This document shows positions 2,073 through 55,269 of a stretch of 64,000 nucleotides of DNA, in pieces (position 1 is the stretch's first letter; every line of letters begins with the position of its first letter). The translations under genes and the position numbers were made by a program. The notes under the pieces are model-generated. The model ran no database searches. It worked only from the letters and a program-made list of their open reading frames with translations, and was not told the origin of the DNA. This DNA comes from Psammoneis japonica (lineage: Eukaryota): contig QPGO01000289.1 in the NCBI GenBank assembly GCA_008632985.1, positions 1-64,000 of the forward strand, in the 5' to 3' direction.

Positions 2073-4779
2073 GCTCTCTGGCGTTCTATCGTCTTTTGTC
2101 AACTGCACTGTTGGGCGGTTGTACAGTACAAGCAACAACTGAGGTGTAAGAGATGGATATGAAAAGCTGATAATGGAACAAAGATATAACAAGCAACACT
2201 TACAAGCACGATCAACGACGACACGGCAACTTTTTCATGAAAATGAAGGAGTTGTGAGGTTTTGGTTGTGTCCCGAGTGAATTTCCAACGAACTTCGTGC
2301 GTACGTCACATCACTTAACGACGTGACGTAAAATGAACGAATAGGAGTTCAATCCCCGACTCGAGCTACTTAATGTACTGTGTTACAGTATGTACTACAG
2401 TACCGTATGGTTGGTGCGACTATTTTAGACCTATGTCTTGTCTACGCTAAATGAACGACGAAATGATTACTATCATAGACAAGACATTCAGGGATGAGAT
2501 CAATCTTTCAATCGCTGGTCAGCTTGACTCTAGCTAGTCGTCATCAAATTGTCTTGTCGTGAACAACATGTCGTGTTCTCTAAGTGCAGACTTTTACTTA
2601 TTGAACGCACTAACTTTTTAGATTATGTATTGCCCCGTTTGCTGCCGTCTGCTCGCGTTAACATGCCCCCCCCTCACAGCAGGATTCCAGATTCCAGTTG
2701 ACGGAATTTGCGCACCGTACACACACCATCACCATGAGAATCATCTTTCGTTTCTAGAGCAGACAGTTTTGACTTCAAATGAGCAACATGCCAAACAAAG
2801 AACTGCAGTCCATCATTGTCACTTCAGCCAAGAACAATGACTGGTGCTTTGGAAACCCTCACTCAGAGAGCATCGTTTGTTGTGTCCTTTTTGTGCTTCC
2901 AAAAAGAAGAAAGTCTTGACGGACAGTTCCCAGGATGCTCGCCAAGTTCTGGTGACTCGGACCGTGACTGCAACGGGAGCCATGTTTGCCATCTTTCCAT
3001 GCCTTTCAAAACACCAAAGAAGACATCAATTCGGCGGCCTCCAGGATTGAACGAATCTTGACAACGACATTTTCCACGGATGTCGTAGTCAGCTTCAATC
3101 TCGCCTTGGGTCGATTTGACTGGAGTCTTTCCTTTTGAGTCCTGTGCACTGCTTTCATTGGGATTGCAACAACAAAATGCAGTGCTTGTCGCTGATGCGC
3201 TTGCTCCGCTTTGCACGGTTGCATCGCGTGAAGAAGCTGTCCGACGTGCTGTGGTGAGGACCACGCACGAATGTCATCTCGTTGCTTTGTTTTACATTGA
3301 TTTGAAAGAAATTGCTGTGCTGACTGTTGTGCGCTTGTCAGCATGTTCCATTGCTGGATGTTTGAGAGCGGGATCAGACCGGGCCCTTGCAGGGAAAGAG
3401 CTCTCTGGGGTTGAACTGGATGAGGTGCATGCGCTCAGTCACAAGCTCCAACACTGGAAGAGCAGGATCAGACCGGGCCCTTTTGGAGGGCAAGAGCTCC
3501 ACCATTCTGGACATTCAGAAGCAGAGTTGCCAATTGTGGACATTGGCAACCACAAACTCAACCCTGTCTTTGATGTCACCCTGCCCAAGGCAGGCACTGG
3601 AGAGCACAGCGACCACTGTCTCAACACAGGACAGTTGGGATGGCACGATCTCGGCCAAATCTTGGCATGCAATGGCGTTTGCATGCAAGTGTTCCACAGG
3701 CTCTGCCTCCACTCTGTGACAATGGCCAATGGTCTGTTGCGCCTCTTTGTTGAACCCTTGACAGCGCGATTTCATTGACGCCCAATTGCTCTGGTGAGAA
3801 GTTTCAGTGTGGACAAATGCTTTCTGTGATTGGTGTTGTTTCGCTGTGTTGCGCCACCTTTTTTTGGCTGTTGCAGCTTGCATCATGGTGGTCGATTGGG
3901 GTGTTGTTCCGACCGGTGCACACATTGCATGACTTTGTGTTCAGCCTTTGCTTGATGCTGTTGTCTGCTCCAATGCTGGCACAAATGTCCATGGCGTCCT
4001 TGGCGGCATGCTGTGCAATTTCTGTCCCCATTGTGCTCTGCATGTTGGATTGCTGGTTGTGGCAGAGACTGTCTCAGGTGATGCAAACTGCCTCTGCTTC
4101 CAATGCCTTGCATGCAATGTCTTTGTGGGGATTCCATTCTTAGACTCATGCTCTTCGACAATGAAGAGAGACAAGGCTCTCCGACTTGTGGAAAAACAGC
4201 AGCAGCGACCCAACAACCGGAAAGCAGGTGGGCCAAGAGCAGACTCCAGAGAGGAACTTCTCATGGCCAGGGACTGCCTCAGGTGTCATGCATGCAGTGT
4301 CTTTGTGGGAACTCCGCTCTAAGACGTTTGCCCTTCAACGATGAAGAGAGACAAGTGACAAGGCAGCAGCACCAACCCAACGGCCGGAAAGCAGCTTGAG
4401 GCAACACACTTGTGCAATGATCTCTCTGCAGAGCAGACTGGAGGGGAATTTCTCGTGGCTGGAGAGACTGCCTCAGGTGACGGAAACCACCTCCACTTCC
4501 ACTGCCTTGTGTGCAACATCTTTGTGTGGAGTCCACAATGTTCTTAGACTGTTGCACTTCGACTGGCAGCAAAACTGCTGCAACGCTCTCCAGAGAGCAT
4601 GCTCTGTCACAGAGAGGGGAATTTCTTCGTCCTCGTCCATGATGGCATCTGCCCAAACTCTCCAGTGGTGGGTGGTGGCATTGTTCATGCAGGCCTGTGC
4701 AATGTGTGAGATCACACATCTCTGTTTTTGTGCATTTCCTTGGCAGCACCAAACTCGCACATGTCTGGTTTGTTTGTCA

Positions 4780-5550
4780 AGAAAACAAGAATGATGCACT
4801 TGGATTGTTGCTTGAGTTTTCCAAAACATTGGGCCACAATGCCAATGGCGTGTCATCCTGGCAGAGCAGATGGTGTCCGGCCCTGTCCCAAGCTGTGCAG
4901 CAAATCATTTCAGGTTGCATGGCATCAAACAGAGCAGCGACATCCATTGGAGAATGTGAGGCCTCTCCAATTTCCTGTGATGTTGTTGTTGGGCTCCTGC
5001 AACCCTCCACAGAGAGCTCTCTCAAGTTTGTCAGTGCCTGCAGCATGGCTGCTGGGATCTCCATTGGTTGGGTGCATTCATCAAGAACCAGCCTTTTCAA
5101 GCTCGCAAGTGACTCCAGCTCCCTTGGCAGCTCTGCAACGCCAGAGCAGCTGCTCAGTCTCGACTCTTCAAGATTGACAAGATTCCCAACAGGAGCTCCT
5201 GGCAATGCTTCAAGATGCTTGCACAGCAAGATGCACTCAACCGCATCAAATTGGTCAACAGGCCAATTTCACTCGGAAGAAAAGTCAACCTGGAACAACC
5301 AAACAGAAAAAGGAAAAGCAACCCGTGGACATTCCCAATTTCTCTGTGCAGCTGTGCAAGGGACTCGCAACCACAAAAGTTCAAGTGTTCCAGTTCATGC
5401 AATTGTCCAATTTCCACAGGCAGTTGCTCAAGACTCATGCAACAAGAAAGATCCAGCACACAAAGTTGCTGCAATTGGCCAATTTCTGGAGGCAAACGGG
5501 CGAGATTCTTGCAGTGCAATGCTTGCAAAAAAACAAGCTGAGTCAACATT
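4780..5550 (-). pseudogene. Leucine-rich repeat gene remnant (plant-NLR-like LRR units)
   Basis: LARLPPEIGQLQQLCVLDLSCCMSLEQLPVEIGQLHELEHLNFCGCESL, and LEALPGAPVGNLVNLEESRLSSC in a shifted frame. Confidence 0.8.
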
Positions 5551-6784
5551 GGTGCAGTGTGATGCTTCTCACCGCAGTGAAACTTTTGTGGCCACTTTCG
5601 ATTTCAGCATTGCGCCTCACATGCTCTTGCATTCGCCCAGCTGCCTGTGAGAAAGAGCTTGGAGAGCTCAATCAGAAGAATCCATCTCATTGCCACAGAG
5701 ATGTTCCTTGTTCCCACACTCTTCTCCAATGTTTGAAAGCACTTGAGACAGAGTTTTGAAGGCTGGATTTTCCCATCAGCATGGTCGTCATGCAGAACTT
5801 GGTCTCTGGGGACATGCAGAATGAAAAAACCTTTCACAATGCCGCAGTGCCACTGACATTCATCCACATGATCTTTGGCCCAACTGGCGGCATGTCCTCC
5901 CTTTTGTCATTTTTAGACAAGTCAATGCTGTGTGGCTGGAAGGTTCATCTTACAAACACTTCCACATTTGTGCATCTGTTGCATGTCCAGCCTGTTGCCC
6001 CCCTGTCTGTTGGCCCCAAACATGCTGAGAATAGCCTCCATCATTGCAGTGATCTCATCCTTGCTGTTCTCCCATTGAGTTTTGGTGGCCTCTCCAATGG
6101 CAACAGCAATGCCATCTTTGAACGGGTTGACATCATGCCAGTCATCGAGGGTGATGGGCTCGACGCATCATTCCTGCAAAACTTGTCAAGCAGCAACAAG
6201 CCCTGTGGATCATTGACTTTGTCAGGTTGTGTGAATTGATCATGTGCTGTTGTCAATGGATCCTTGAGCTCCTTGAGACACAGATCAGGATCATCTTTTT
6301 CGACAACGTGCCACCGCTGTGTCACCCCCTGTCACACAGCCATTGACGTTAACTGCCGTCATGGCGGAAATGGCTGCAATGAATGCATTTTTGTGTTTTT
6401 GAAGAGAAGTCATGGGTTTGCTTGGATCTGTGGCTGATGCTTTGCACAGAGTGTTGACAGAGAGTGCAAGGTTGATGGCTCTGTTGATTTGATGTGCTTG
6501 CTGGCTTGCGCTTCATCTCTTGTGCTGGCTGTGGTTGATCTTCTGCACACGTCTGAACGCAACCATCCAATTGATGTCAGATTGATGGAATCTGGTGCTG
6601 GAATCTTGCCAGGGACATGTTGTGGAGAGAGCATGTGACTGACCAAATAAAAAGAAAACCATGGAAAACAGACAGACATGATGGCCACTTTTGAGAAAAA
6701 AGCAAAAAACCATCACGTGCACAGCAAACCACGGCAGCACCATGGAGACACCACTGTGTTCATAAAAAGTGACCGTCGCTGGGA

Positions 6785-7245
6785 ACTGGGACAATGTCAC
6801 ACAGTCAAAAGCACTGACATGAGGCGACACAAATCTGCCAAGCATGCTGGTGGTGTTTGTTTTTTGGCATCACAATCTAAAACTCTTCTTGTTGCAACAC
6901 TCTGTTTAGATGGGCAGCATGTTTTTGTGGTTTCTCTGTGACTGGGCTGTGTTCACAAAGCAACCCTCACTGGGACAATGTCACATGGTGCAGAGCATGG
7001 ACACAAGGCAACACGAATGTGTTGAGCGTGATGGCTGTGTTTGTTTTTTGATGTTGTCTAAAATTCTTGTTGCTGCACTCTGTTTGGATGATTTTGTGTT
7101 GTTTCCATGTGACTTGGCTGCACTGTGCACTCATGAAGCCACCATCACTGGGTCAATGTCATGTGGTTGGCATCATGGATGCAAGGCCATGTGGGTGCAT
7201 CAAGCATGATGGTTGTGTTTCTTTCTGGTGTCATCCAAAAGGTTG
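6785..7245. repeat. Degenerate tandem repeat, ~180 bp unit, about 2.5 copies
   Basis: ctggg(a/t)caatgtca recurs at ~6787, ~6970 and ~7148 with similar downstream sequence. Confidence 0.7.
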
Positions 7246-7339
7246 CTGGGCTGTGCGGTGTGGTTGAGTGGCAGGAACAGCTGGGGGTTGAGTGGATGCA
7301 GCAGTGGCAGCAGCAGCAGCGGGAGATTGTCTTGATCTC

Positions 7340-8520
7340 AAATCATTGTTTGTGGTGGCATTGGGCAAATCTCATCCTGGTGCTTCACTGGAGCATGCTT
7401 CCTCCATTTTGTCCCGAGCTCCATTTGTTTGATGTTGGGGATTCCAGGAAATGGGATGACCTGGGGTGCCACCTGCAAGAGCTCCATTCTGTTGCTGTTG
7501 GTCCCGGGCTTTTTGAGTTCTCTTGTGGCGGTCGCACCTTGATCCTCCTCCCAGCAAGACACCTGAATTTTCATGTCAGTTGGCAAAGCTTTTGTTGCAG
7601 AAAAGATGTGGCTCTTGTGGACCATGCTGGGGGGTGAAGTGTCGACACAATGAATCAAGTTTCTTGTTCCAGTCTTGGAAGTCTTCCTCATCCATGCACA
7701 GTGGCAGTGGCAGCATTCTCGTTTTCATTCAACAACTCCATCATTTGCTTGAAGGCACAGACATTGGAGTTTCTGCATGGCTTTTTCAAGATGTCGCACA
7801 TCCGGTCACAAGGGTTCTTTGTGTGCCCAACTGCAAGAAACACAAACTGCACCATTTGACAGAATCTCTGCTCAACCAAGCAGAGGGCCAGCCAAAGAAC
7901 CATTCTGTTCTTGTTCTGACTCCAGCAGTTGTCCATGACAACAGCAAGCTTTGCTCGAATTTGCTTTGCTGTTCCCATCATCATTGACCTCCAAACACCC
8001 TTTGTCCTTTGGATGCTTCACAATGAGTGTGATGCGACATTGTTGCCTCCTTTTTTGCCTTGGCCCTCATGGCACACACATGCCAGGAGCAAGTTGTCTT
8101 TCATGTTGACAAGTCCAAAACAATTTGCGTTCAAAGGAGAAAAGTGGTGAGCATCGCCAGATTGCTCATTGCCAAGGTGTGGAAAGTCCATGTTTTCAGA
8201 GTGGTCACCAACAAGCACATCAACAAGTTCCTGTTCAAGGCATTTGGCAGTGAGAGAATTGAGCAGTTCTCTCTGAGCAACAGCCTGTTGGACACAGATT
8301 TTGGCTTTTGCCGCTGCCTCCTCTCTCCTCAGACATCCATTCACTGGAGTGTTGCTGCTGTTCAAAGGACAAGGTGACACCAAGAAATGACAAAAAGCGC
8401 GCGACAACACAAAGCAGTCAGAACAAATGTCCTCCCTGGCTTTGGGACAAACCAGCTTTGGGCAGCTTCTCTTCCAGAAAGAACGGAAAGTTTCAAAAAC
8501 AACTGTCTTTTGTGGCTTCA
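7340..8520 (-). mobile_element. Degraded DDE transposase, Sola-like (DNC-QNKN / GHT family); probably extends up to ~9300
   Basis: EDICSDC, DHSENMDFPHLGNEQSGDAHHFSPLN, ACVCHEGQGKKGGNNVAS, VMDNCWSQNKN and FLAVGHTKNPCDR; stops and frameshifts present. Confidence 0.75.
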
Positions 8521-10728
8521 TGTCTTTCTGTGGCTTGCGTCAATTCAGTCGCCCCTTTGTCATTCTTGAGCTTGGCTTTCCATCCTTGTTTGCCAACCCA
8601 TTTGTCCAGCAGCTCCTCATCGTCATCCCCAGCCCCTGCTCTGACTTCCAGTTGAAAAACCTTGTGGCTCAAGGAGAAGCAAGTTCCATCATGTCTTTGA
8701 AAAAATGTGCAACAACGTTTCCACGTCTGCCTTCATTTTTGCATTTGATGACTCACCCTGTGCTGTGCCAGATTTGCCACACCAACTTGAGGTTTTGTGG
8801 GCTTCCTTGGAGCAGACAGCGCACTTGAAAAGACCATCTTGGAAGCACATGTTTGTCCATTTGAGAAAGTGCCCTCCAACAGTGGCATCTGCCTTGCTTG
8901 TTGAGTGCAGTGCACAAAAAGAGGTGTTTGAACAGCCACAGGCTCTGGACAAATCAACAGCTTGTCTGATTTCCTCGCACTTCCTTGTCTGAGGAAACTC
9001 AGAGCCGAGCAAGGAATTCCCTGTGATCAAAAACCCCAAATGATGCAGTGATTGGCACATTGCCAATGACTCTGTTTGTGGTGTTGCTGTCAAATTTGTG
9101 CTGGAAAACTGTGCACAGTTCCAGCACCTGTCGTCATGGAAATGGAGCTCCGTCGTTGTGGGATTCCACACAAGAAGCTCCAGCACATTTCCTGCACAGT
9201 TCATGAAGAGCTGCTTGCATGGCTGGACAATTGCCTGATTTTTGAAAAAAAAAAAACCATGTGACCTGCCTTTGTCAATTCTTTGGTCCTGCCAGGTGCA
9301 AAGAAGCCCAAGGCCACTTCTTGGAGGCAAGTGATGGTCAATGAGGGGGTGTTTGCAATTGTTGTGTAAAAACTGCTGTTTGTTTTGGCAAGAGCCGTTG
9401 TTGTTAAATAAAGGGGCACACAAAATCCAATGCAAAATGTCTGACTGGCACAACAGGTGCGTTCATGCCAGCAGCTGGTCGTCAGCCTCATGCCGGCAGC
9501 TGCAAACGTTAGACTGCCTGCGATTTTGGGGGGGTCAGTGACTCCAAGAGAGGGGGAGAGGGGAGAGGAGAAAGAAGGAGGAAGAGGAGAAAAAGGAAGG
9601 AGAGAGGAAGGGGTTGCGAGGGCAGCGAGCTTGATCTAAAAGGCAGAAGTGGTTTGAAGAGCCATCATCAATTCTTTCTCCCGTTTCACCACCCGATGTG
9701 TCAGATCTCCGGGTGCTCCACTGCACGCGAAAGTTCCAGTAAATCTCCTCCTGTTTCTGGATTTTCTGCGCGCACTTCGTTGCGCGCGACTTTGGATGCG
9801 GCATGGCGCGTTCTCTGGAGGAATTACTGGAGAAACAGGGTTTTGCTGGACACATTACTGGAATTTTCACCTTTTCCTGGGTCAATTGCTGGGTCGTCCT
9901 TCTCGGAGATTGCTGGTTTTCATTCCTGGACGCCAAATTACTGTCATGCATTTCTGGGTTTGAAGGTTCCTCCAATCTTCTGGGGGACGGCCCATTTCTG
10001 GAACACCAGGAATCGGTGCTCTCTATTCCTGGACTATGTTTCTGGTAGAGCATTATTCTCAACTATGGTGCAACGCATTTAAATGCTACGGTACTGACAA
10101 CTATGACATCAACAGAGAATCAATTAAAAGATACAATTAAACAAACTAGCACTCCACCACGCACTTTCTCGCGATTCTCAATGCAGAAAACAAACTTTTA
10201 ATCGTCAAGTCTCCTCGGTTTTCTTGCCCTACTAGGCCTATTAGAGGTGCGTCTCCGTCTTGTAGTACGCGCCATCATCCTGAGACTTGTTCGCAAAGGA
10301 TTCATTATGGTTCTGGCTGCAAGAATGGTGGTCGCATACATTGTTCTTTTGTACCTCATCGGATGCTCTGTGGCAGTGTATGTAAGAGGGAAGAACAATT
10401 GGTGTGAGTCGCCAGAAAAGGAAAAGAGAACTATTCTTAGGACGACTTACCGAATGTTCCCGTTTGCGGTCGATTGCGTCGTCTCCTCTCGGCTCCGCTG
10501 AAACGCAAAAGGCAGAACTATTGAGGATACTTGGAAAAGGATATACATACCAAGAAAAACCAAGCCAGTACGTACGTGATGTTGCTCACCTTGTTGTCTG
10601 CTTCTTTTAGTTGATATGTTGAGTTGTAGCCATCTCGTCTTTTTCGCCCTTCCTTTCGTCAACATTGTTCTCTTCGTCCACTTCACCCCGACATCCATTC
10701 ACTGCCCCTGCCATGAAGGGCTCTACCA

Positions 10729-11110: not shown

Positions 11111-14039
11111 CAATGAACTTGCTGAAGCAAATCAAACAGTGCTTTCCTGGATCTGCGGCCAAACAACGGATCCCGAGGCCATGGTATCGCTGCTTCTTGG
11201 ATTATGATGGTCTTGTGCTTTTTGGATGATGGTTTTTCGTTTTTCTTGGGTCAAAATTACAGCATTTATTTTCAAGGACATATAAATTTATATTCAAAAT
11301 TTTGGTAATTTGAAATTATGTTTATCTGTATTAATGTGCGTATACCCAATTACATGGATATTCAAAATGCGGAATGTATTGATACCTCTCAAAAATCGAG
11401 GGTGACGAGCGTTTGAATAAGTTGTGTATTCAACCAGGATTTTAATTTATCTTCCCTCAACGGTTGCAAGGAACGTGCAGGCAAGACAGAGTGCTGCTCG
11501 TCCGTCCCAGACCCCCTCTGCTCAAGACATCCCGTCTCAGCACAGCATGTGTGAACGGTGATGACAACCCATTTTGGCACTGTCCAGAGCTCTTGACTTG
11601 CTGCCACAAGGTGATCTGTGGTGGGTTTGCTCAAAGGGATGACAGGGTGCATGTTGTGGGTGACCACAGAAAATGTGCAGCTGGCGCAAACAGGAGGGAG
11701 TTGTCAAAAATGCGAAGTTCAGCCTGGCACCCCTGCATTGTTTGTGCGAGGCGAACACAAACCACATTGTGGCCACAGCCCAGCTGGCTGGACACAGACA
11801 AAGGCACCAGAACCAGAGGGCATGCCCAGGCTCTGCAGATGGGGGAACCCTCCTCCACCGAGCCAGCACTGCCCCCATGGGCAACAGCCAGATGAGAAAC
11901 AAAATTAGAGAGACGGGGCACACACTGCTGCCAACTTTCTTTGTTTGGTTGAGGAAGATGAGGGACCTGTGGATCCTCCCTTGGAGTGCCAGAGAGGGGG
12001 TGGGGGTTCTTGACTCACCCACCAGACTCCTCAAACTGTGAAAGGGATGCCAGCAGAACATTTTTCCAGAAAGAGCACCAGCAAACAAAATCTTGGCATC
12101 AGCCACTGTGTTTCATGATGGCACACAGGCTGGGAGAGTGGCACTTCAGACAAGGATGCCCAACTGCACCCGCACCTGCAGCAGGTGGCTCAGCTTGATG
12201 CAAGTCTTCCAGATCAAAAGTGGAGCCAGATGGCAAATGTCTTTGGACGGGTCGCTGAACAGAAGAGACACCTGGCTTGGCAAAAAGGCAGAGAAGTCAG
12301 GTTTGCTGAAATTGAGAAGTTGAAGGCAAGGATCAAAGAGCCAGGGCCTGGAAAGAAAGCAGGCAAGAGCAGATCACTGGCAGGAACAACAAAAGCCAGA
12401 AAAGCAAGTTGGCATGTCTTCACATGATTCCCAGCCAATGGGCACAAGAGCTGCGATGGCTTTTGGGGGGACATTGCCCCCATCTTCACCACCACAATTG
12501 CAGTGCCAACAACTCTTGGGCAAATCAGATCACCAAGGACAGGCAACTAAAATGGCCTCATCTTGGAGAACATTCTCCACCCAAAAGTTCACAAAGAGCA
12601 TCAGAGTTGACGATGTTGTTGCTGACTTTCTAACTTCTGGAGGGGAGCTCACGTTGCCTCTTCTCCAATCTCAATGAACCCATCTGACACAGGTGCTGTT
12701 GGCTTGCATGTGTTTTACACAGAAAGAAATGGTCAAGAGCTGCACAAAGAAGCTGTTGAAACATTTGAAGTTGATGGGATCACTTGTCTTTTTGTGTGCT
12801 TGATGTTTGGAGGAGTGGCATCATGTGTGGTGCATGCTCGCTCCAATTGGCAAGTTGTTGGTGGTTGATGGAAATTCCCTGAAAGAAGAAAAATCAAGCA
12901 AAGCTCACCTTGGGATCATTTTGTGACTAAACTGAATGAAAGAATCCAGGTTGAAGCAAGGTGCCTCAGAGCACGAGTGCAAAGATGATGACTCTCAAGC
13001 AACACCTGTCTTCCCAGCCTTTCTGAGGGCCAACCTGTGGTTGTCTGTCTCCAAAGCTCAGCATTGAGTTGATGCAATGTGGTGTCCCATCTCTGCCATT
13101 GTTTCAGAACATTGCAAGTGTGGTTGAATTTCTCCATTTTTCCAAAAACTGCGTGTCCTTTTTGGTTGGAAAGAACAAGGCAAACACAGTTGCTGCATGT
13201 CAGCAAACTTCATTGCCTCTTGAGGTGTTCAACACTTGAAAGGGGGAATGTTCTGTTGCATCTGCTGCTGGGCTGGGGCATCTTATGGCCAAAACACCAC
13301 CACAGGACAAACCAAGGCAGTTGCAATGAATGATCTTAAAGCCCATCACCCCTGGGTCACAGCAAATTGGCAAATTGGCTGGGAACCCTCAGGGATGCAG
13401 CAATCTGGACAGACCCCTCAGCTGACAAAAGTTTGGTTTCTTTGTCCTCACACTTGGGGTGCCCATCTGTTGTCCAGGTGGAAAATCATCTGCTTGCAAC
13501 CTGGGGCAATGCCAGGCCAAAAAAAAAACAACTCCAGATGAGCCAAGGCAACTGCAATGAATTCTCTCAAGGGGCAGACTTTGAAAGCATGCTTCTGGGT
13601 CACACAGTGAGTCAGCCAGAACTCTCAGCTGACGACCATTTGATTTGTTTGTTGCTCTTGGTCTGGGGCAATGTTGGGCCAAAAAAATGCCAGAGGATGA
13701 GCCAAGCCAACCACAACAAATGCTCTTAAATTCTGCCCCTGGGTCACAGTGAGTTGGTCCTCAGAATTCCCAGCTGATGACTTGTTGGGGTGTCCGCCAT
13801 TGTCCAGATGGAAAGATCAAGTCTGCCTCTGCTGTCAGGCTGGGGTGATGTCAAGCCAAAACAACACAAGACAACCCAAGCCAACTGCCACTCCACAATT
13901 GTGGCTGAAACCAACCCAACCAAGCTGTGATCAGCAGCTCAAGAAGTTTGTGCCTGTGGGCAAGTGGAGGAAACTGAGAGTGCAGACAATTTGTCAGAGG
14001 GAGCTTTTTCTGCTGCTGGCCAACACTTGTTCTTCAATG

Positions 14040-14880
14040 CTTTGGGATTGTGTCTGGGGACAGGAAGAGTGTGCTCAGAAGCTTGGGGTGCAAACCATTT
14101 TTTTGCATCAGTTGGAAGCAACTTTTTCCACTGGCTGACACCTGGCCATCACACAAGAACTCTGCACACACAGAGGCTGCCCTGCCACCACAACCTCAGT
14201 CAAGAAAAAACCAGCCCAATCTGTGCTCAGCCCTTTGAGACCATTCCTTGGGACATGGACAGTGAGCTCAGAAGACAAGACTGCAAAAACTTTGGCAGAA
14301 GTGACTTTTTCTGCTGGCTGACAGAGCCACTTCACCACCAGGGTTCTCTGCACACCCAGAGGCTGCTCTGCCAGCACAACCACATCCAACAAGAAACCCG
14401 CCCAAACTGTGCCCAAGCCTTTGAGATTGTGCACTGAGATGTGAAGATTGTGCTCAGAAGGTGAGAGTGCAAAAGGTTTGGCAAAAGTGACTTTTTCTGG
14501 TGGCCAAAACCTTGGTGCCACCAGGTTTCTCCACAGGCTTCCCAGACTTTGCTCTGGTGCCAACACAGCTGCAGAGTCAAGCAAACCACCCAAACTGTGC
14601 TCAACACATTGAGGTTGTGTCTTTGGACATGAAGAGTGTGCTCAAAAGAAAAAGCTGCAAACACTTTGTCACAAGTGACTTTTCTGCTGGCTGACACCTG
14701 GCCAACATGCAGCTCTGCACTCACAGAGCTGCTCTGCCACCACAACCAGGCAAATTGCTTTGCACACTTCCCAGAGGAGGCTGCTTTGCCACCACAACTG
14801 CAGTTGAGCAAGCCACCTGAACTGTGCTCAGCCCTTTGAGATGTTGGTCCTTTGGACACAAACAGTGTTCTTGAGTGAGG
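14040..14880. repeat. Degenerate tandem repeat family A, ~185 bp unit, 4-5 copies
   Basis: Recurrent ctgtgctcagccctttgaga / gtgtgctcagaag / aagtgactttttctgctggctgaca. Confidence 0.7.
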
Positions 14881-14904
14881 AAGAGGAGGAGGCACCTGCA
14901 CCAG

Positions 14905-15860
14905 ATCCCAGACTGGGGTGATGTTTGGCCAAAACAACAACACAAGATGAGCCAAGCCAAGTGCCACTTTTGAAGTCAACTCCTGGGTCACATTGAGTTG
15001 GCTGGAGCACTTTGCTGGCAACTGTTTGGTGTGTTTGTCATGCTTGAGGTGACCATTCATTGTCCAGACACAGAAAACAAGTCTGTCTGCAGACTGCTGG
15101 GGGGTGATGTTTTGGCCAAAACCACAAGACAAGATGAGCCAAGCCAACTGCAACTCTTGAAGTCCACCAATGGGTCACATTGAGTTTTCTGGAGCCCTCT
15201 GCAAGCAACTGACTGCTGTCCAGTTTGTTTGCCATGCTTGAGGCATCTGTCCATTGTCCAGACAGGAAATGAGTCTGTCTGAAGACTGCTGGGGTGATGT
15301 TGGGCCAACACTGCAACACAAGATGAGCCAAGCCAACCACCTTTCTAGAAGTCCACCCCTGGCTCACATTGAGTTGTCTGGAGACCTTTGCAGGCAACTG
15401 CTGTTTGGTTCATTTGCCATGCTTGAGGCATCTGTCCATTGTCCAGACAGAAAATGAGTCTGTCTGCAGACTGCTGGGGTCTGGGGTGATGTTGGGCCAA
15501 CACAAGATGAGCCAAGCCAGCTGCCACTCTTGAAGTCCACCCCTGTGTCACACTGAGTTGTCTGAAGCCCTCCACAAGCAACTGACTGCTGTTTGGTTTG
15601 TTTGCCATGCTTGAGGCATCTGTCCATTGTCCAGACAGAAAATGAGTCTGTCTGCAGACTGCTGGGGTCTGGGGTGATGTTGGGCCAACACTGCAACACA
15701 AGATGAGCCAAGCCAACTGCCACTCTTGAAGTCCACCCCTGGGTCACATTGAGTTGTCTGGAGCCCTCTACAAGCAACTGCTGTTTGGTTCATTTGCCAT
15801 GCTTGAGGCACCCATCCATTGTCCAGCAGACAAAAAATGAGTCTGTCTGCTGCCAGCTTT
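14905..15860. repeat. Tandem repeat family B, ~187 bp unit, 5 copies, with weaker relatives at ~13490-13900 and ~15860-16170
   Basis: ggggtgatgttgggccaaca...caagatgagccaagccaa...gaagtccacccctgggtcacattgagtt...catgcttgaggcatctgtccattgtccagacag; units start at ~14912, 15098, 15288, 15481 and 15669. Confidence 0.9.
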
Positions 15861-16184
15861 GGGCAAGATTTTGACCCAAACAACGACAGATGAACCTTTC
15901 TGGCCACAATGAATGCTCTTAAAAACCACCTCAGGGACACAGTGAGCAGGCCAGAATCCTTGGTTGACAACTGCACAGTCAGTTTGTTGCACTGAGGCAT
16001 CCATCCATTGTCCAAATGAAGTGATCAAGTCTGTCTTGTGCTGGTCTTGGGCAATGTTGGGCCAAAACAACACCAGATGAACCAAGCCAACCACATTGAA
16101 AGCTCTTAAAATCCACCCAAGGAGCACAGCAAAATGGCCAGAGCTCTCAGCTGACAACTTTTTTGTGACACAATTGGGGTGCTC

Positions 16185-16925
16185 ATCCAGTCTCACCCTT
16201 GGAGTGGTGTGGAGTAACATGGGGGCAACAACTGCACCAGAACAGCCTTGCAAAACTCAGCCACAGTTCTCAAAGTGTTGCACGGGGGTCTGCCAAAGAC
16301 CCCCATGCCCTCTGGCTGCAGTTGTTGGGTTCTTGGTTGGTGCATTCATGGCATCCTTCCACTGCAGAGTTGGGGTTTCAAGTCTCACCCTTGGCATGGT
16401 GTGAAGTGACATGGCTGGGGTCACAGCTGAGCCAGGGTGCTGGCCTTGCAACTCTCAAAATCACAGCTCTCAAAGCATCCCCTGGGGTCCACCAAAGACC
16501 CTCAATGCCCTCTGACTGCAGTTGTTGGATTGTTTGGTGCACTCATGGTGTCCTTTCACTGTGGACTTGGGATTTCAGGTCTCGCCCTTGGTGTGGTGTG
16601 GGCTGAAGCAACATGGGGCCACAGCTGAGCCAGGGTGGCCTTGCAACTCTCAACCACAGTTCTCAAAGCATTGCCTGGGGTCCACCAAAGGCACCCAGTG
16701 CCCTCTGGCTGCAGTTGTTGGGTTGGTTGGTGCATTCATCGCATTCTTTCACTGTGGAGTTGGGATTTCAAGTCTCACCCCCGTTGTGGTGTAAAGTGAC
16801 TGGGGCAACAACTGTGCCAGAGTGGCCTTGAAAGCATCAACCACAGTTCTTAAAGCCTGCTTGGGGTCCACCAAAGACCCCCAATGTGCTCTGGCTGCAG
16901 TTGTTGGGTTGGTTGGTGCCATCAA
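16185..16925. repeat. Tandem repeat family C, ~190-198 bp unit, 4 copies
   Basis: agtctcacccttgg...ccacagttctcaaag...ggggtccaccaaagacc...ctctggctgcagttgttggg; units at ~16189, 16381, 16579 and 16771. Confidence 0.85.
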
Positions 16926-17206
16926 TCTATGTGGAGTGACAGCCGCAGCGGCCATGACTTTCTCCGCCCACTCTCATCAACAGACACACTTCACAGCAAA
17001 TTCCGCAGCAAATGGCGGCTCCTCTCTGTGGCAGCAAACAATGGAAACCATTCTGTGGCAGTCATCTAGAGCAAATGCACAGAACTTTGTCAGTCATTTA
17101 GATTTAATGATTTGACACATTTGATGCACTGGCACTCCTGGAAAACTCAACACGACCCCCACAACAAAACAACCCCGATCCGCACCCTTCTCTGTGACCC
17201 TCTGCA

Positions 17207-17473
17207 TTGTCATTCAAGCATGACACAGCCTTGATGTTTCCTGCACTCTGTCAAATTTGCATTCTGGGGTGTCTGAAAGAGAGTGTCTGGACCAACTCTC
17301 AACAACAAAAACTGAATCTAGACGAGAACACTCACCTGCGTCAGAGTGGGAATGACGCGAGACACCCTCCCAGCAAGTGATGTGTTGTCATTCAAGCATG
17401 ACACACCCTTGATGTTTCCTTCACTCGCTGTCAAATTCGCTTTCTAGGGTGTAAAAAAGAGAGTGTCAGAGCT
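17207..17473. repeat. Direct repeat of ~85 bp, two copies ~180 bp apart, resembling an intron 3' end plus exon start
   Basis: tgtcattcaagcatgacaca-ccttgatgtttcct...tgtcaaatt...ttct(g/a)gggtgt...aaagagagtgtc at ~17207 and ~17386. Confidence 0.8.
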
Positions 17474-18014
17474 GACCAAGATGGAGGAAGAGGGAGGCGA
17501 GGGCGAAGGCGAAACAGAACAAGTTGAGGTCGAGTTTGATGAAGATGAAGCAGACGATTGCAACGGCAGTGACGACAATGGTTCAGACACTTGCAAAGAA
17601 AGAATCCGCCACAAGCCCTGTCACCTGTCCAAGGATGAGGATGAAGCTCGAGCTTCTCTTCGGAAACACAAGCCGCTGTCTGTTTCATGTCTTCGTAACG
17701 GCAAGCATGGGATTCCTGTAAAAGGAGAAAGGCACATTGAGATTGAACATGTGCAAGATGAGGGAGAGGAAATTTTCGGGGCAACGTGCTTTGGGTGGAC
17801 GGAGTGCACTGCGGCGGTGGTCCATGACAATGCATGCGGCGACTTCACGGCAGAAGACATTCTCCACGAGTGCCTCTTCTTGCCGCGGCTAAAAAAGCGC
17901 ATCACAAGTCCAGATGATGAATCACCAAGAGATTGCTGTGTTGCAACCTCGGAGTGGAGGGAGATGGACTGCACAGGGGAAATTGTAAAGCCAAAAGCAC
18001 ACGACGCGTGTTAG
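17447..18014 (+). pseudogene. Mutated coding remnant, possibly the C-terminus of a Plavaka/CACTA-type transposase
   Basis: Acidic tract followed by GATCFGW, HECLFLPRL and DCCVATSEWREM, which reads as YY..TSEW.E once Tyr is restored. Assignment is from memory of diatom transposon proteins. Confidence 0.35.
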
Positions 18015-20531
18015 AAAACACATGAGAACTGGCAAAACAAATGACGTGCAACAGTTTGGCACGCACCGTGCACATTTTGCGTCCCAGAGGAACCGAGTTC
18101 ATCGTCGACAACTGAAAGGGATCCAACGAGCAAAGGGCAATGGTGCAGGCACGTCACTGGGTGTGCTGTTGATGAGGAAAAAGACGGTGCCACACTAGAT
18201 TCGCCGGTTGGATGTTGGCTTGGCACGCATCAGAGGGATGGCACTAGAAGGTTCGTCAGCGGGGCCTCCGTGCAGAGCTTCGCTCGGTGCACCGCCCAAA
18301 TCAGATGACGGACAAATGCTGTGGGACAAGCTGACGAAGGCACAGCAGTCCTCTGGGCGACAGACCAAAAGTTGGGAGAGCCAGAAGGTGAGGTAGACAC
18401 ATGGCATCAATCGTCACGTTGCGCGACACTGCTGCCGCGGATGGGGACAAGGACGGAGCGACACTGCACTCGCATCGGCTGACGCAAATCATTGGACCGA
18501 TGGACCGATGTAGCTCCCACTGATGAAAAAAAGAATGGCATGACCACGGTCTTTCTTGGATGCATTGGTGGTGGGGAGACACCAGTCACTGTGTCCGCCG
18601 CACACATGACAGAACGCAGAAGCACGGAGCCCCGCGGGTGTGTGCACCATTGCAGATCCTTGCCATGAGAGAAGGGGACCACCACAATGCGCAAAAAACA
18701 AAAGCTCAGGAGATGGCTTTCTTGGGAACTTGGGTGGAACAGGGCCAACAAACACCACAATGCTTGCCTCGCTGCGGAATGAAGCATGTGGGCGCGCTGT
18801 GTGAAGACATGGAGAGAACACGACGGGGCTGGCAAGTGCACAAAATGTGAGAGCAGAGCACGATCCGCCTCAAAACATTCACTCACCATCCACAAAGAAG
18901 ACGACAAAAACAGGTGTTCTATGCTCTATCATTGAAGGCTAGGGAGTCGGCCACATCCATGCCGCTGTGCATGTTCTCGCCATCGCTGCGCACGGCATGA
19001 TGGTGCACAACAACTCGCCCTCATCGAAGATGCATTGACGGCCAAAGAAATAAAAAATGCTTGCAGAGCCAACGCTTTGTCATTCTATCATTGTTTGTAT
19101 CAAACGGAACACAGCAACGAAAGAGATAAAGAATGAGGCTGCGGCTTTTATCATCATGGTGCAAGCATGGGTGCGCAATAATTAATTAATGACCGTTGAT
19201 GAAAACGGACGATGCAAGGCATCCAGAAATAATTCCGGTAAAAAAGGTCGTTTTCTGGAATATCCCAGTAATTAGGTCATTATTTTACCCAAAATGCCTC
19301 ATCCAGTAATTAATCCGTTAAAAAATTCCAATCCAGTATATTGTTCCAGAAAAAACGCAAATTACTGGGAAAAATAAACGGATTACTGGATTTCTCGCGT
19401 GCATGTTGAAGTAATTTGGTGTGGTGACACAGATGAGACATTGTAGTAGTGTTGAAGTATCTCTAGTATGAATATTACGTAGAAATCTACGCAATTCAGG
19501 AGTTTCCCTCCGACACCACACAAAAAATCGACCATGAGAGCTGCAAGAGCCGGTAGTCGAAATTGTCGCCGTCACTTGTGATACTGCTGTGACAACAAAG
19601 CACGCATTAAAACTCTCTCTGATGAATGAATATACGAAAAGAGATGTATGAAAAACGTGAAAAATGGATAAGAAATGCTTGGTACTTTTTCCATTTTTTG
19701 AACTCGTCTCTCACCGCTCTTGCGTTGCAATTTCTGTTCGTTCTTGACAGATTGAAGAGCCCTCCTTTAAGCATTGATCATTCATGGCGTCTCTCATGCT
19801 GATGCTTTGTATTGTTGCCTTTTTGGCTTCAGCCGAGTGTTCACCCTTCGTTGACGAGGCTTTAGAAGTTGTTGGAGTGGTGGCTTTTCAGGGTTCATTG
19901 GAATTGCTGAGTGCGGCGGTACCACAAGCGCTGTTGACCGGGATATGATGGAATGGATGTCAGATGTTGGTTGTGGGTGTGGTTTGTTTTGGCTGGTAAT
20001 CTACAATCTACCACTTTTGGAAAAGTCCGTGTATAAGCGGCAGACGAGGTTGCCCTCGTCTTTAAATAACACGGGCCACTGCCGAGGCTGCCGACTGCAG
20101 CTGCGCCTCGGTAATTTTTTTCTGCAATAATGTTCATGTGGCCTGGGATGCCGGTGCCCCCCACCTCTGAATATTGAGACGGCCAACGAGAGCCAAGGGG
20201 TTGCTCCCCGGTGAGGCGTTGACTGGCACTTCCAAGGACGGGAGTGCCTTCAACCGCCGCAGACCCGAATCTCCGTTGCGATAGGGTTCACCTGCCCTCG
20301 AAAGGTGGTGGTTTGGTGTGTCATTGTGACAAAGTATGTGGAGGATACAACAGCCAATAGTAATAGAAGTGTGGTAGGAAATAAATAAAATAGTGAATTC
20401 AAAACTCATGAAAACTCAAGCTCTATTTCGAAATCACTGCTATGCATCGCGAGTCTAGATCGCTTCTAGCTATCTCACGAGAATGTCAACAAAAGTAGTA
20501 ATACATAAAATATACCTAGTAATGATAATAT

Positions 20532-38479: not shown

Positions 38480-39200
38480 ATCACAACTGCAATCAAGTCA
38501 CAGTGGCTGACATTGACAACGGCATTCACAAAGAGGACAGAGGACATTGTGGTGATGATGGCGATGCAATGTCTTTGTTGCTTGCAACTTCAAAGAAATT
38601 GTGACAGCTGGAATCGATGCCTTTCGAAAGGCACTTGGACAGTCGTCAGTGCAAAGACATGTAGAATGTATGAGGAATCCCAGCAAAAAGAAAGTCTTGG
38701 CACCGTTTCACCACGCGGCACACTGACATTGGGCCAGACACATGTGTTGGCCGAAACCGACCTCTGACACAATGGTCACTGCCGGCAAACATGTTCCAAC
38801 ATCATGGTGGTGTTGCAATCAATTCGGTTGCTTTTTGATGCTTTGATGGATGTTTTTGGGTCAGGAATGAAGTCCAACATTTGCTGTTGTGTCTTTTCAT
38901 CTCCCGTGTGTCTTCCATTTGTTTGCTCCAAGCAGAGGCAATGGTGTGACAATGTCTGTTTCGCAGGATGAGCTTTTCATTTGGGGGACTCTTTCTTCAT
39001 GCACACTGCACTGGCCATGACCATGCGCGCCGGATTCCAACAGATGTCCTTGGCACTTGCCTGTGGCCAGCAGTGAAGACGCGTTCCAGACGCATTGACA
39101 GCCGTTGAAAGATCTTTTTTCGATCTTTTGTCGATTTTTTTAGCTCGGAAAACAGCCTGCGGCACTGATGAGCGAAAGCGAAAGCTCACATCATCGAGCT
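38480..39200. other. Small TpA-depleted island between PARN and the OB-fold gene
   Basis: Only about 3 TpA in ~700 bp; CpG is retained. Confidence 0.6.
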
Positions 39201-43239: not shown

Positions 43240-45590
43240 CACTCCTGAACACGAAGAAGCTGGTGTGTGAGGATGCACCACTGCTGTGATGATTAGACAA
43301 CATGGCAGAAAAGCGTCCTTTGAAGGATGAGAGAGCATGTCTCGACCAGAAACAAACAAGGGAGCCCTCAACCTCATGTCAGTGCTGAAAATCATGGTTG
43401 GGAATGATGTGATTGAATCAAAAGATCTGGTGGTGATTGGCCTTGCCTCAATGGCAATGCACTTGCTTTCCCTCAAGGATGATCTGTGCTGGTCTTTTGT
43501 CTTTCCAAGCGAGACTCTTTTGTTCTTGTTTCCTCCGGTCTCTCGCCAACTCTGAGCAAGAAGCAATCGTCAAGAGACCAGGACACCAGCCCCTGTTTTA
43601 GAAACTGCACACTTTGTAAAAATCTGGGGAAGAAATTGTTGACAAAAGTTGTGACTTGGAAAAACCATTGCAGCCCCCGTTGCTGACACACGCAATGACA
43701 CGTCCCTCCTGCTGCTGATCTGTGTTGATTGTGTGATGGAAAACTTGTTGCTGAAAAGTCAATTGAGGGAGCAGCTCTTACAGAGCTGCTTCAATCCAGT
43801 CTTCAGTCACTGGATTTGGAAGAAAAGCCAGAATTGGGTGATTTTGTTTCCCGTGGCCACATCGGCAGTGATGATGGATGATGGTGATGGTCGCCACTTG
43901 CTTGGAATGCCTTGACATGTGCTGCCACTCGCACCAAAGTTTGGATGCCTTTCATGGAGTGCAAGTGGCATTCAAAGTTGAGTGGGGCTTTGCAGCTGCA
44001 GTTGACACCTTTGACTTTTCTGATGAAGGGAAAGGGAGCGTGACTCCACCACAATGCAGGAATGAACGTTCCGTTGGCCTGCTGTGTGAAGTGACAACCC
44101 GAGCAGCATCCATGTTCATTTTCCAGGCATGGCCCTTCCTTGTCTTTCATTTCATGTGAGCCTTTTGCCAAGGCAAGCATGCCCAGTTGTCAAACTCACT
44201 GATGGCACAGCCCACTCAAGTGCCACAATGTGGATTTTGAGAGCTGCAATCTTTTTGCACCCTGGCCTTCCACCAGATTGCCACCTCCAAGTGACAAGAG
44301 ACACAACTCAAAAGAAGCATCAAAGAAACAAGGTGTTGCTGTGCTTCACCTTGTCAAACGTGTTGGTTGGTCAGCAGAAAAAAATGAGTTGCACTTTTTG
44401 TGCTCATCTGCACATCAACTCTCCACTTGCCAGAAAGCAGCTGTTTGCTGGCTTTAAAGAAGAGAGCAACTCCAGAGGAAATCCCAGGTGTGGTTGGTCC
44501 CTGTTGCCTTTTGCTGGTGCCACAAACATGTTTCTTGCACCAACGATGTGTGCCAACCTCTGCAGAGGTCAGCAAGGCTGTGTGTTCTGCTTAAAAAGAA
44601 GTGTTGCCTGTCAAAAGCAACCCGACAGAGGACTGCTCACAAACCATTCAGAAATTGTGCAATCTCCACACAATGGAAACACATGTGGGATGTCACTGCC
44701 TTTTTCCCTCTCTGTTGCAATGCATTGGTTGCGTGTGTCAAGCACTTTGCATTTGCCCACTGTGAAGAATGTGCAGCATGTGCTTTCCACCAATGAAAAG
44801 TGCCATTTCTGACATCCTGTCACATTGTGTTGATGTGATCATCCTGGCTAAACTTGTCAAGAGTGCAGAGTGCAGATTTGATCACACACATGCAAGAACT
44901 TGCACAGCAAACCCATCTCAAACAAGACATGATGTCATGCCCCAAACTGCTTTCCTCTGACTGTGCTTGAACTTGGTCCAGTTGCCAACTCTTTCACTGG
45001 CTTGCACCCACCTGTGAGCCGGGTTTGCACTCTTGTCAAAAAGGGCAAACATCCCTCACAGAGTTGCTGCATTTGGTGTTCTTGAGAATGGTGCCAATGC
45101 CTGCTAGAGAACATTTGGTGTGAGTCACTCTGCTCAAAAGGCCAGCTGGGCAGCCAGACAAGCTGTGCTGCAAACCACTGTCTGAAACAAATGGTGGGCA
45201 TGTGTGGCTCTCCCATCCTCAGTGACTTTCTGCTTTGCAAATTTTTCTCAGATTGCTCAACAAAGTCTCAGCCCACAGCAAGAGGGATGTGGGGGTTCCA
45301 GCTGCATTTCCTGCCCACAGAGCAAACAGGCATGTGTCTCTGTGAACACATGGCCTTTGTTCAGTCATGTGCTGCATGTTGCAAGCGTGCATTTCTGCTT
45401 GTGACTTTGGCAGCATTTTGTGGTTCAATTTTTGGGCCATCCACTCAGCAACTTTTTGACTTTTTTGCAGCACCACTCTCAAATGTCTTGGGAGCAGTGC
45501 TGGGCAGGTGGATTTTTGAACATGTTGAGTGTTGGGAGGCACAATTGCACCACAAACTTGGTTGTCCAGCTGAATTCTGCTAAGAAGGCA
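43240..45590. other. TpA-depleted island 3
   Basis: About 9 TpA in 2.3 kb; CpG is also scarce. Confidence 0.9.
44200..45535 (+). mobile_element. Highly degraded relative of the Harbinger-like element at 52970-55135
   Basis: Same motif order: RHNSKE (44299), HMWDVT (44680), ASWAARQAVLQ (~45145) and MWGFQLHF (45287). Segment 45360-45535 is the reverse-complement homologue of 52970-53160. Confidence 0.55.
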
Positions 45591-45738
45591 TGACGACACA
45601 ACCCTAACCTACAGTGCCATGATACAACACACAATACACATGCCTAAAGGTGCTTTAAGCGATGATTACACAACAGACTAGCCCAAGAGTCTACGAGCAT
45701 GGGATAAGGTCGTTACAGACCCGGAACTGAGGACAGAG

Positions 45739-47374: not shown

Positions 47375-48119
47375 TACCCAAAAACAATGAATTACAGGAT
47401 GCAAAAGGCACTGATAGAGAGTTGGTAGTCGTATTGTATTTGAGACACAACAGATGCAACGTCGGCTTCGACCCCACCAGCTGTCCCTGCGAAGATAAGA
47501 AAGATGATTCAAGATGCCATCAGAAAAATGTGAGCATCGGGTTATGAGATGGCATGAGGTACGTACTAGCGACTGAAAATGTGCGGGATTCAACTTTTGA
47601 ATGAGGAACGAACCAAAATAAACGCTTTCAGTTTCTCGAAATCGGTCAAGTGGGGGACTGCGGTACTCAAATAGCGTAGAATTCTACGTGTCGTACTTCG
47701 CCGTGTTGTAAATCGAAATCACGTGGTGAAAGCACGGTGAAACTGACAAGTGGCGGAGAACGTCCAAATGACAATTGGAAGGAAAGTGACGCTGTCGAGC
47801 TTGTCCTAGACACATGTTGTCCGATGTAAATAGAAACTTTCGTTCAGAAACTTGTCACAACAAATGTTTTGGACAATTCCCAAGTTCACCACGGCGAAGC
47901 ACGGGAAATCACTCGCCAAATTGCCGCGCAAATCACTGGCAATCATCCAGCGACACTTTGTAGAGCTGTGATCAACGAATGACTTCCATTCCGACATCGA
48001 ACTAGCACAACCTGTTGTAAGATGTGTCACAACAAAACTGTCATTCAGCAGAGTGTTCCTCCAATTGTCAAACGTTGTCAGAAGCAGTTGTGGCTTTCCA
48101 CCGTGCTTTCGTCGTGTTG

Positions 48120-51100: not shown

Positions 51101-52140
51101 GCACAATTCTTCAAACACCAAACACATTCTTGGCAGACCAGCCGGCCCTCCCTTGTGGTCAGCAACTTGTTGCGGACAGCGCGCCAATCAAAGCGCATCA
51201 GCAAGTGAACAGGGCCAACCCATGGCCTGCAACGTGGTGGACGACAAAACTTCAGGAACGCAATCGGAAACTTCTTTTCCCAATTCCAAGGCCTTGTCCA
51301 TGGTGTTTTTCATTTGAGATTGTGTCAATTGGTCTGTCAAACAACATTTTGGCTCAATCTGCAACGCCTCTTTCATTTCATCAAGCAGCTTGACCCAGTC
51401 TGGTTGAACAATTTCAAAACCATGTTTGGTCTCTTTGAGAACGCCAGACACAAGGCGTCTGCTTCCGGGACTTCCAAACAATCGTTGGCAACCCGCTGCC
51501 ACCCCATTCGATTTCCCGCAAAAATGTGCAATTGTCAGAGGCCCTTGGCTTTTGTTGTGATGTTGCACTTTGAAAATGCCAAGTTTGTTTGACACGTCAC
51601 CACTGCAACACATGGTTTCAACAGCAACTTGCAAAGCAACTGCTTGACCAGGTGTGGCATCCAATGCAACATTTCGAAAAAGCTTGGTGCGATCAACAAA
51701 TGACGTTGGAAAATGCCAAAGCAGAGACCGGATTGTGTGCAAATTCAAACGAGCAAATGCCTCGGCTGTCTTGGGGCCAACACCGCGCAAGGTTAAAATG
51801 GGCTTCTCCAATTTGTGTGGTTTGGAGACAAACTGTTCTGCAAGGTCAACACTGGCAGCAGCGTTGTGTTGCGGCATCTCAAGAGATTTTCGACGTCTTG
51901 CAGCGGTCTCTGCAGGTTTTGTTTTTTTGCTGTTTCTGTGGCTTGCAGGGCGTGTGTGTTTTCCTCTTGCAGGAGTGTGATCATGAAGAGCCGTCTGACT
52001 TTCTTTCTGTTCTTTCTCTTTCAAGTTCCTGCCAAGTCAACAAGACAATGCAGGCAGTGAGATGAAATGCTCCGCAAATGCCAATGAAGATTTCTGAAAC
52101 GAGCATGCGAGTGCCAGCACATGCCTCACTGTGGCCATGA
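48120..52140 (-). pseudogene. recG: RecG helicase with an in-frame C-terminal DEDDh 3'-5' exonuclease domain, hypermutated
   Basis: LRGVGPKTA, LPFKLTDAQ, LQGDVSSGKT, APTTILIDQH, VGTHAL, VVDKEQRFGV, MTATPMPR, SQLHQLRGRIG and ELCGPG; then LDAETAGL, AHDAAFD, IDTL and AHNVVGNV. Confidence 0.9.
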
Positions 52141-55135: not shown

Positions 55136-55269
55136 TGCTGCCAATCAAAGCATCTGTGCAATTGTGGCGGTGTTGACAACAGACTGCCCCAGTGCTGTGA
55201 GTGATTGAGACAAAGCATGATCTGCTGCTTCCATTCTGACTGCACTCGCGTTGTCATCATCATCAGTGG

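Follow-up and report, generated by a model that had tools for sequence, protein, structure and literature searches.

Tandem-repeat copies that read CA at one position and TG at the same position in the next unit, with an occasional TA, raise the question of which state came first and how the others arose. We addressed this question in contig QPGO01000289.1 of Psammoneis japonica, analysed over positions 1 to 64,000 of the forward strand (hereafter the window, 64,000 bp), which carries several families of ~190-bp tandem repeats. An initial annotation of the window had reported sites at which different repeat copies hold TA, TG or CA, and every site it quoted is present in the sequence. In repeat family B, one site reads ccctcTGcaagc (TG) at 15200, ccctcCAcaagc (CA) at 15573 and ccctcTAcaagc (TA) at 15769. 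In family C, one site reads agTAac at 16215, agTGac at 16407 and 16797, and agCAac at 16609, and a second site reads ttctTAaag at 16851 and ttctCAaag in the remaining three copies. The MAFFT register of the 16609 copy differs from that used in the initial annotation, which places a 5-nt insertion there and is better by eye. As described below, the repeats lie inside one of five blocks from which TpA has been almost completely removed, and we consider it probable that these blocks record a domain-restricted hypermutation of TpA to TpG or CpA, with a preference for 5'-TAY-3' (Y, pyrimidine; R, purine), together with methyl-CpG decay.

Blocks were located by counting TA per 250 bp and by measuring TA-to-TA gaps. 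Five sharply bounded blocks, amounting to 26 kb of the 64 kb (Table 1), held 70 TA in 25,994 bp, compared to 1,357 TA in ordinary sequence (34,400 bp). In the per-kb counts, TA fell from 43 outside the blocks to 1–8 within them. The observed/expected ratio in blocks relative to ordinary sequence was 0.04 vs 0.62 for TA, 0.33 vs 0.99 for CG and 1.71 vs 1.16 for CA/TG. The longest TA-free run was 2,308 bp, while at background density the probability of a gap of at least 300 bp is 2.5e-6 per TA. Four block boundaries were sharp to 50–100 bp, and the left edge of block 2 was abrupt within 50 bp, with TA counts inside that block of 0–3 per 250 bp compared to ~10 outside. The loss was restricted to TpA, as the ratios for AA (1.27) and TT (1.23) in blocks were both unchanged; the ratio of 0.78 for AT in blocks may be a by-product of the loss of ATA and TAT.

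The total of pyrimidine–purine (YR) steps was conserved, at 243 per kb in ordinary sequence and 229–251 per kb in blocks, and CA+TG rose from 145 to 186–225 per kb, which indicates that the missing TA and CG became CA or TG by transitions. Gains of CA and of TG were about equal in every block, as expected if both strands were hit, and the G+C content of the blocks was 0.46–0.54 compared to 0.47 in ordinary sequence. TA and CG were not depleted together. In block 2, CpG was nearly absent up to ~17250 and normal from ~17500, such that positions 17501–19000 had 8 TA per kb and a normal 57 CG per kb. Likewise, in the 47.8–52 kb part of block 5, TA was down to 9% of normal and CG to 62%, and CpG retention in that block fell from ~60% in 47.8–52 kb to ~30% in 52–56.75 kb. 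These TA-poor stretches with CpG kept show that TA loss was separate from CG loss, faster than it, and not co-extensive with it. A contig from another run of the same sample, ~90% alike, covered 17625–18472 within the stretch 17251–18919, with flanks unlike those of the window; this stretch looks like a younger multi-copy element, caught when its TA had already been lost and its CpG had not.

We also compared the flanking bases of the TA that survive in blocks to those of TA in ordinary DNA. Survivors were distributed as 43 YTAR, 17 RTAR, 9 YTAY and 1 RTAY, compared to 199, 367, 326 and 465, respectively, in ordinary DNA (chi-square p=5e-24). YTAR thus had the highest survival (~0.29), the mixed classes were intermediate (0.04–0.06) and RTAY was lowest (0.003), with the same pattern in each block. 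Complementary tetranucleotides showed like survival, and this strand symmetry indicates that one rule operated on both strands, namely TAY to TGY, which is RTA to RCA on the other strand. The flanks of the products fitted this rule in three of four independent flank classes, the fourth being neutral.

The polarity of change was read from a gene copy inside block 5, which encodes a RecG-type helicase with a C-terminal DnaQ-like exonuclease (Pfam matches to Helicase_C and RecG_wedge, and a weak one to RNase_T). Homologues P0121–P0128 were taken from a search of 1.84 billion representatives and placed by tblastn onto 51856–48270. These diatom proteins share the two-part architecture, one cluster being named RecG of Cyclotella atomus, and two of them, P0122 (1312 aa) and P0125 (1145 aa), align through the exonuclease part. 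The window copy lacks Tyr codons altogether and changes frame once, near 50.9 kb. The homologues align to it in two tblastn frames, and its seven in-frame TGA show that it is dead. Where most homologues have Tyr (seven columns), the window reads His (CAT) three times, Cys (TGT/TGC) twice, Met once and Phe once, and never Tyr (p=2e-5). Similarly, the 17 Tyr of the best homologue correspond to five His, four Cys and eight other residues, with no Tyr (p=3e-7). When each homologue was tested separately, p was <0.01 for 6/8 and 0.03 for P0126, and P0124, which has five aligned Tyr, was not significant. Conserved Arg was kept at 14 of 35 positions, and 13 of the 21 changed positions read Cys (5), Gln (3), His (2), stop (2) or Trp (1). 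Many replacements outside TA and CG were observed as well. The replacement of Tyr by His or Cys, and of Arg by Cys, Gln, His, Trp or stop, indicates that TA to CA/TG and CG to TG/CA changes both occurred. Overall, the direction from TA to TG or CA is established by the Tyr replacements in this pseudogene, by the conserved YR total and by the TA-poor part of block 2 in which CpG is normal.

Against this regional background, the repeats themselves were aligned. Tandem Repeats Finder (TRF) reported arrays of period 186 (14160–14504), period 188 with a higher order of 373 (14913–15850) and period 193 (16245–16919), and a repeat search extended the degenerate relatives over 13273–16189; Rfam gave no match in the window. 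Units of families A (5), B (5) and C (4) were cut and aligned with MAFFT, and family A, whose first and last units aligned poorly, had 10 CA/TG columns. Across the 81 YR-only columns of the three families, 20 were CA/TG and one was CA/TA/TG, while just six were single-step (CA/CG 1, CG/TG 2, TA/TG 2, CA/TA 1). The mirror control of purine–pyrimidine columns gave the opposite balance, with no AC/GT column and 27 single-step columns (Fisher p=1.1e-9 vs YR). This excess of CA/TG over single-step columns indicates that YR steps change as a unit between CA and TG, with TA and CG as short-lived intermediates. Sister units only 8–9% apart already differ by CA/TG; adjacent units carry CA in one and TG in the other, and both products are interleaved inside 190-bp units. 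The proposal that hits fell on either strand after the repeats had amplified was thus borne out.

The initial annotation further proposed that three-state columns reveal the direction of change, TA being the ancestor. The direction is right for the region as a whole, but the columns themselves do not supply it. TA occurred in 4 YR columns, 2 of them among the 22 of 81 that hold both CA and TG, which is not above chance (hypergeometric p=0.30). We therefore turned to an 11-copy MAFFT alignment of B-like units that includes the older degenerate copies, which gave one further three-state column with TA and one with CG. In column 81, TA is found at 13337 and 13727 (both TTAA, in the outgroup units), 15920 and 16107, CA at 13568, and TG at 14971, 15158, 15531 and 15727, and TA is the most parsimonious ancestor. 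In column 184, CA is found in nine copies, CG at 13633, again in an outgroup unit, and TG at 13778. At the leading family B site (15200, 15573 and 15769), where the initial annotation took TA to be ancestral, the older copies pointed elsewhere: the second position is G in 8/10 aligned copies, including four older copies that read cAGc, which indicates that the family B ancestor had TG. The TA at 15769 is thus derived, by a G to A change, and the CA at 15573 probably arose through such a TA, in which case this site probably records the step from TA to CA and not a TA ancestor.

It is therefore unlikely, as a general account, that three-state TA copies are relics of a TA ancestor from which TG and CA arose by independent strand hits. 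This explanation holds at column 81, where four diverged copies, drawn from two sub-arrays, carry TA; a TA ancestor requires the fewest changes there, and the TA lies in TTAA, the slowest context. Most TA copies quoted in the initial annotation also lie in slow contexts (TTAA at 16851, GTAA at 16215). The derived TA at the leading site, the chance frequency of three-state columns and the existence of one that holds CG all weigh against it, and the family C sites are without an outgroup. Furthermore, 18/26 YR columns in the 11-copy set were variable, 17 of those 18 holding both CA and TG, whereas TA and CG together make up ~40% of YR steps in ordinary DNA. This excess points to repeated flipping through regenerated intermediates, in addition to a one-off resolution of ancestral TA and CG. 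As CpG decay was also active in the blocks, the CA/TG columns are of mixed ancestry, in which the TA:CG share is beyond the resolution of 4–11 copies. Flank classes of the 21 CA/TG columns (Y..Y 9, Y..R 5, R..Y 4, R..R 3) carried no usable signal for TA vs CG ancestry.

We propose that the repeats, as part of one of five silent blocks in the nuclear DNA of a pennate-diatom-like organism, would have been subject to two processes. The first would be a fast conversion of TpA to TpG or CpA on either strand, with a strong preference for 5'-TAY-3' (RTA on the opposite strand), and the second a slower decay of CpG to TpG or CpA, presumably reflecting 5-methylcytosine (5mC) in the same silenced DNA; both would be near completion in the blocks. 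With TA and CG short-lived, YR steps could persist only as CA or TG, and each repeat copy would settle on one or the other independently, producing many CA/TG columns. A TA in a three-state column would then be either an unconverted relic, as in the four TTAA copies of column 81, or a regenerated intermediate, as at 15769, and TA would survive mainly in the slow YTAR context.

For the chemistry of the first process, we tentatively favour adenine deamination by a TadA/ADAT-type candidate enzyme, although we would put this somewhat below an even chance. An alternative route, which we regard as improbable, is that the thymine of RTA is modified or oxidised (as in 5-hydroxymethyluracil- or 5-formyluracil-type bases), mispairs with G and is replaced by C. 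T to C at RTA is A to G at TAY seen from the opposite strand, since TpA is palindromic, and dinoflagellate DNA contains 5-hydroxymethyluracil preferentially at TpA. None of the searches made pointed to such a base, either in diatoms or in the organism itself, whereas the natural TadA substrate, U33-A34-C35, has a U-A(-C) context that fits TAY directly.

A still weaker explanation is selection, in which TA and CG would be avoided because they are read by some factor, for example a nuclease, a chromatin reader or a transposase that targets TA. It would suit the abrupt block edges, but a dead gene and degenerate satellites are unlikely to have been under site-by-site selection that removed ~97% of TA (RTAY and mixed flanks), and the flank dependence is strand-symmetric and graded in the manner of an enzyme preference; we consider selection very unlikely. 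Methyl-CpG decay alone, with all CA/TG columns derived from CG and the few TA due to later, unrelated transitions, is more remote again. The CG ratio of 0.33, the Arg replacements and the three CG-bearing single-step columns are what it would produce, but it cannot remove TA, turn Tyr codons into His or Cys, or leave 17501–19000 poor in TA with normal CpG, and it would have lowered the G+C content. As TpA was removed more completely than CpG, methyl-CpG decay is present in the blocks but is not the whole explanation.

In nanopore consensus, systematic transition errors can result from methylated motifs. A public run that was compared with the assembly contained 0.56 of sampled words from 12500–19500. 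K-mer contigs with a depth of ~100–350 were placed on 11000–20000, where 150/620 pieces were at least 99% alike; the remainder are diverged copies or alleles, and the repeats are multi-copy in the run. Transitions predominated among the differences between contigs and window (A>G 92, C>T 88, G>A 89, T>C 73, compared to 11–25 for each transversion type). Among the best 40 of 488 difference rows, window TA reads TG in the contig at 13285 and 15770, window CA or TG reads TA at 13961, 15998, 17788 and 17938, and three adjacent CA/TG doubles were exchanged. These differences are illustrative only, being without polarity, and in them alleles and paralogues are inseparable. The public-run contigs rule out a long-read base-calling artefact, and it is extremely unlikely that modified heterochromatin bases were miscalled as transitions in sequencing or assembly: high-depth contigs reproduce the stretch, the seven stops, frame change and replacements outside TA and CG in the RecG-type copy indicate real, old divergence, and strand-majority miscalling would give long one-sided runs, unlike the CA and TG interleaved inside the repeat units.

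Several observations weigh against the proposed hypermutation and its reading as genome defence. Evidence in the window consists of a mutational footprint, and since TpA is its own complement, adenine deamination and thymine modification are indistinguishable in it. The confirming run is possibly the assembly's own source and so is not fully independent. Pfam searches of 12 block ORFs (open reading frames) found no viral or transposon family, only the RecG-type gene and one weak K-box match. The sole identifiable gene in the blocks is of host type, and the targets differ from the viral targets of the comparable process in Bigelowiella natans. An apparently intact 733-aa ORF at 20532–22733 (minus strand) adjoins block 2 and has ordinary TpA. 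Pfam gave no match for it. A language-model comparison placed it near clusters of DUF6729 and Mutator-like transposases at a score of 0.93, which is no more than a lead; should the ORF encode a transposase, it escapes hypermutation. Finally, six diatom-like metagenome contigs (L017–L022) that carry an orthologous glutathione-reductase gene had a longest TA gap of 98 bp. Their reductases are 75–76% identical, their G+C is 39–40% and their TpA ratio is 0.84–0.88, compared to 0.62 in the ordinary part of the window. The lack of a TA-free stretch in these contigs indicates that the process is not general among diatoms but lineage-limited. The wider set of metagenome loci with a glutathione-reductase gene (73, of which 41 were at least 3 kb) contained no TA-free run longer than 662 bp, and serves as a baseline that is uninformative on close relatives.

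The glutathione-reductase gene in the window (ORF 45739–46785, minus strand) is 88% identical to a protein of the raphid pennate diatom Seminavis robusta, and its other named matches are from diatoms, on which basis the window was taken to be nuclear DNA from a pennate-diatom-like source. It occupies an island of normal composition (45581–47900) between two TpA-free blocks; the boundary of block 4 and the 3' end of the ORF are ~160 bp apart, and this boundary is abrupt to within 50 bp. Pfam matches in other long ORFs of the window were to an amino-acid transporter and a CAF1 nuclease. A 433-N run at 59113–59545 lies inside a long ORF (57749–60709). Tandem motifs of 21 bp at 32168–32217 and 52482–52523 have TRF consensus units that by eye resemble reverse complements of each other, with CCG in the ordinary-DNA copy and GCA/TGC in the copy within a TpA-free block. 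Since TAA and TAG are missing from them, the blocks contain many long overlapping ORFs on both strands (e.g., 4697–5650, 14332–15153 and 55380–56144). Such ORFs gave no family match, are spurious and are a trap for gene callers, and the CpG and TpA statistics of the blocks could pass for those of foreign DNA.

Table 1. TpA-free blocks, repeat families and the dead gene copy in the window
Feature	Coordinates	Strand	Basis
TpA-free block 1	2756..9366		TA counts, gaps
TpA-free block 2, all tandem repeats inside	11449..18919		TA counts, gaps, per-kb table
Four degenerate B-like units, outgroup copies	13273..13974	+	Repeat search families D3, D6, D8; 11-copy MAFFT alignment
Repeat family A, five units of ~186 bp	13975..14912	+	TRF period 186; alignment
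Repeat family B, five units of ~188 bp, higher-order period 373-380 bp	14913..15857	+	TRF; repeat search D1/D2/D4; alignment
Two degenerate B-like units, TTAA at 15920 and 16107	15858..16189	+	Repeat search; 11-copy alignment
Repeat family C, ~3.8 units of ~193 bp	16190..16925	+	TRF period 193; alignment
TpA-free block 3, short	38670..39140		TA counts, gaps, edge
TpA-free block 4	43295..45580		TA counts, gaps, edge
TpA-free block 5	47900..57054		TA counts, gaps, edge
Dead RecG-type helicase gene with C-terminal DnaQ-like exonuclease	48270..51856	-	Pfam, homologues, tblastn

The proposed deamination resembles the activity of TadA/ADAT2 and ADAR, in which A is converted to inosine and read as G and the edited A follows U or T; the TadA substrate also matches the inferred TAY. 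In their known roles, however, these are RNA enzymes. ADAR has a 3' preference for G, and ADAR-type hyperediting yields strand-coherent clusters of A to G changes, with that 3' G preference, on retro-element substrates. ADAR hyperediting through an RNA intermediate was rejected, as TG and CA are interleaved in 190-bp units, the 3' preference is for a pyrimidine, and tandem repeats and a gene copy are among the substrates.

Fungal repeat-induced point mutation (RIP) converts CpA and TpG to TpA and makes DNA AT-rich. What we observed is like RIP in being a dinucleotide-specific transition hypermutation that is limited to regions and repeats and destroys genes, as in the dead RecG-type copy with its seven stops. 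It is unlike RIP in that TpA goes to CpA and TpG, which is the opposite direction, with G+C unchanged or slightly higher. RIP itself was rejected on the observed/expected ratios of TpA and CpA/TpG (0.04 and 1.71, respectively) and on the G+C content of the blocks. It is conceivable, although we hold this with still less confidence than adenine deamination as such, that the blocks reflect a RIP-like but chemically opposite defence, in which a DNA adenine deaminase targeted to chromatin or repeats, and derived from TadA/ADAT as the TAY preference suggests, would erase TpA in silenced DNA up to saturation, alongside 5mC decay. Diatoms possess DNMT4, a relative of the RIP enzyme RID (PMC9998398), but it was rejected as the agent, as a cytosine enzyme cannot make A:T to G:C changes. 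Methyl-CpG decay in silenced repeats (for the methylation of transposable elements in diatoms, see PMC9998398) shares with the blocks the change of CG to TG or CA on either strand, the CA/TG columns and the Arg replacements; it differs in that here TA was lost faster and more completely than CG, and over stretches that do not coincide with those of CG loss.

The closest known system is that of the chlorarachniophyte B. natans, in which TpA-specific A:T to G:C hypermutation has so far been reported once, in a 2026 preprint (bioRxiv 10.64898/2026.01.13.699255; Mettrop et al., 2026). In the text of that preprint, 230/231 mutations in an integrated giant-virus region and a virophage region of mutation-accumulation lines were A to G or T to C, all GC-biased mutations fell on TpA, ADAT2 was put forward as the candidate enzyme, and there is no mention of diatoms, CpG or flanking bases. 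Our literature search, which covered sources other than subscription journals and bioRxiv supplements, found no report of TpA purging in diatoms. The window is like B. natans in the change of TpA to TpG or CpA, that is, A:T to G:C, almost only by transitions, restricted to TpA, on either strand and confined to discrete regions, of which there are five here. We infer that the TpA process is driven by an enzyme and targeted to domains, as a hypermutation akin to genome defence and of the B. natans kind.

The two systems also differ. The organism here is a diatom-like stramenopile, and the affected DNA consists of satellite-like repeats and a host-type RecG pseudogene, compared to viral inserts in B. 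natans. TpA is reduced to an observed/expected ratio of 0.04 over 26 kb, whereas the text of the preprint gives a rho of 0.45 for its nucleocytoplasmic large DNA virus (NCLDV) region. Coupled CpG decay and the TAY preference were both observed here, and neither appears in that text. In addition, mutations were seen live in B. natans lines, whereas in the window the process is known from the traces it has left. If the RIP-like defence outlined above is real, ~40% of the window sequence is an editing product. The process can reach satellites and gene duplicates, not viral inserts alone, and the window offers a saturated substrate from which to read the flank preference (TAY) of the putative enzyme. 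The same signature, nearly complete across 26 kb, in an algal lineage unrelated to the first suggests that this is not a curiosity of one species. Under such a defence, and taken together with Bigelowiella, TpA-directed DNA editing would be an immune mechanism that is old or recurrent in the SAR (stramenopiles, alveolates and Rhizaria) supergroup.

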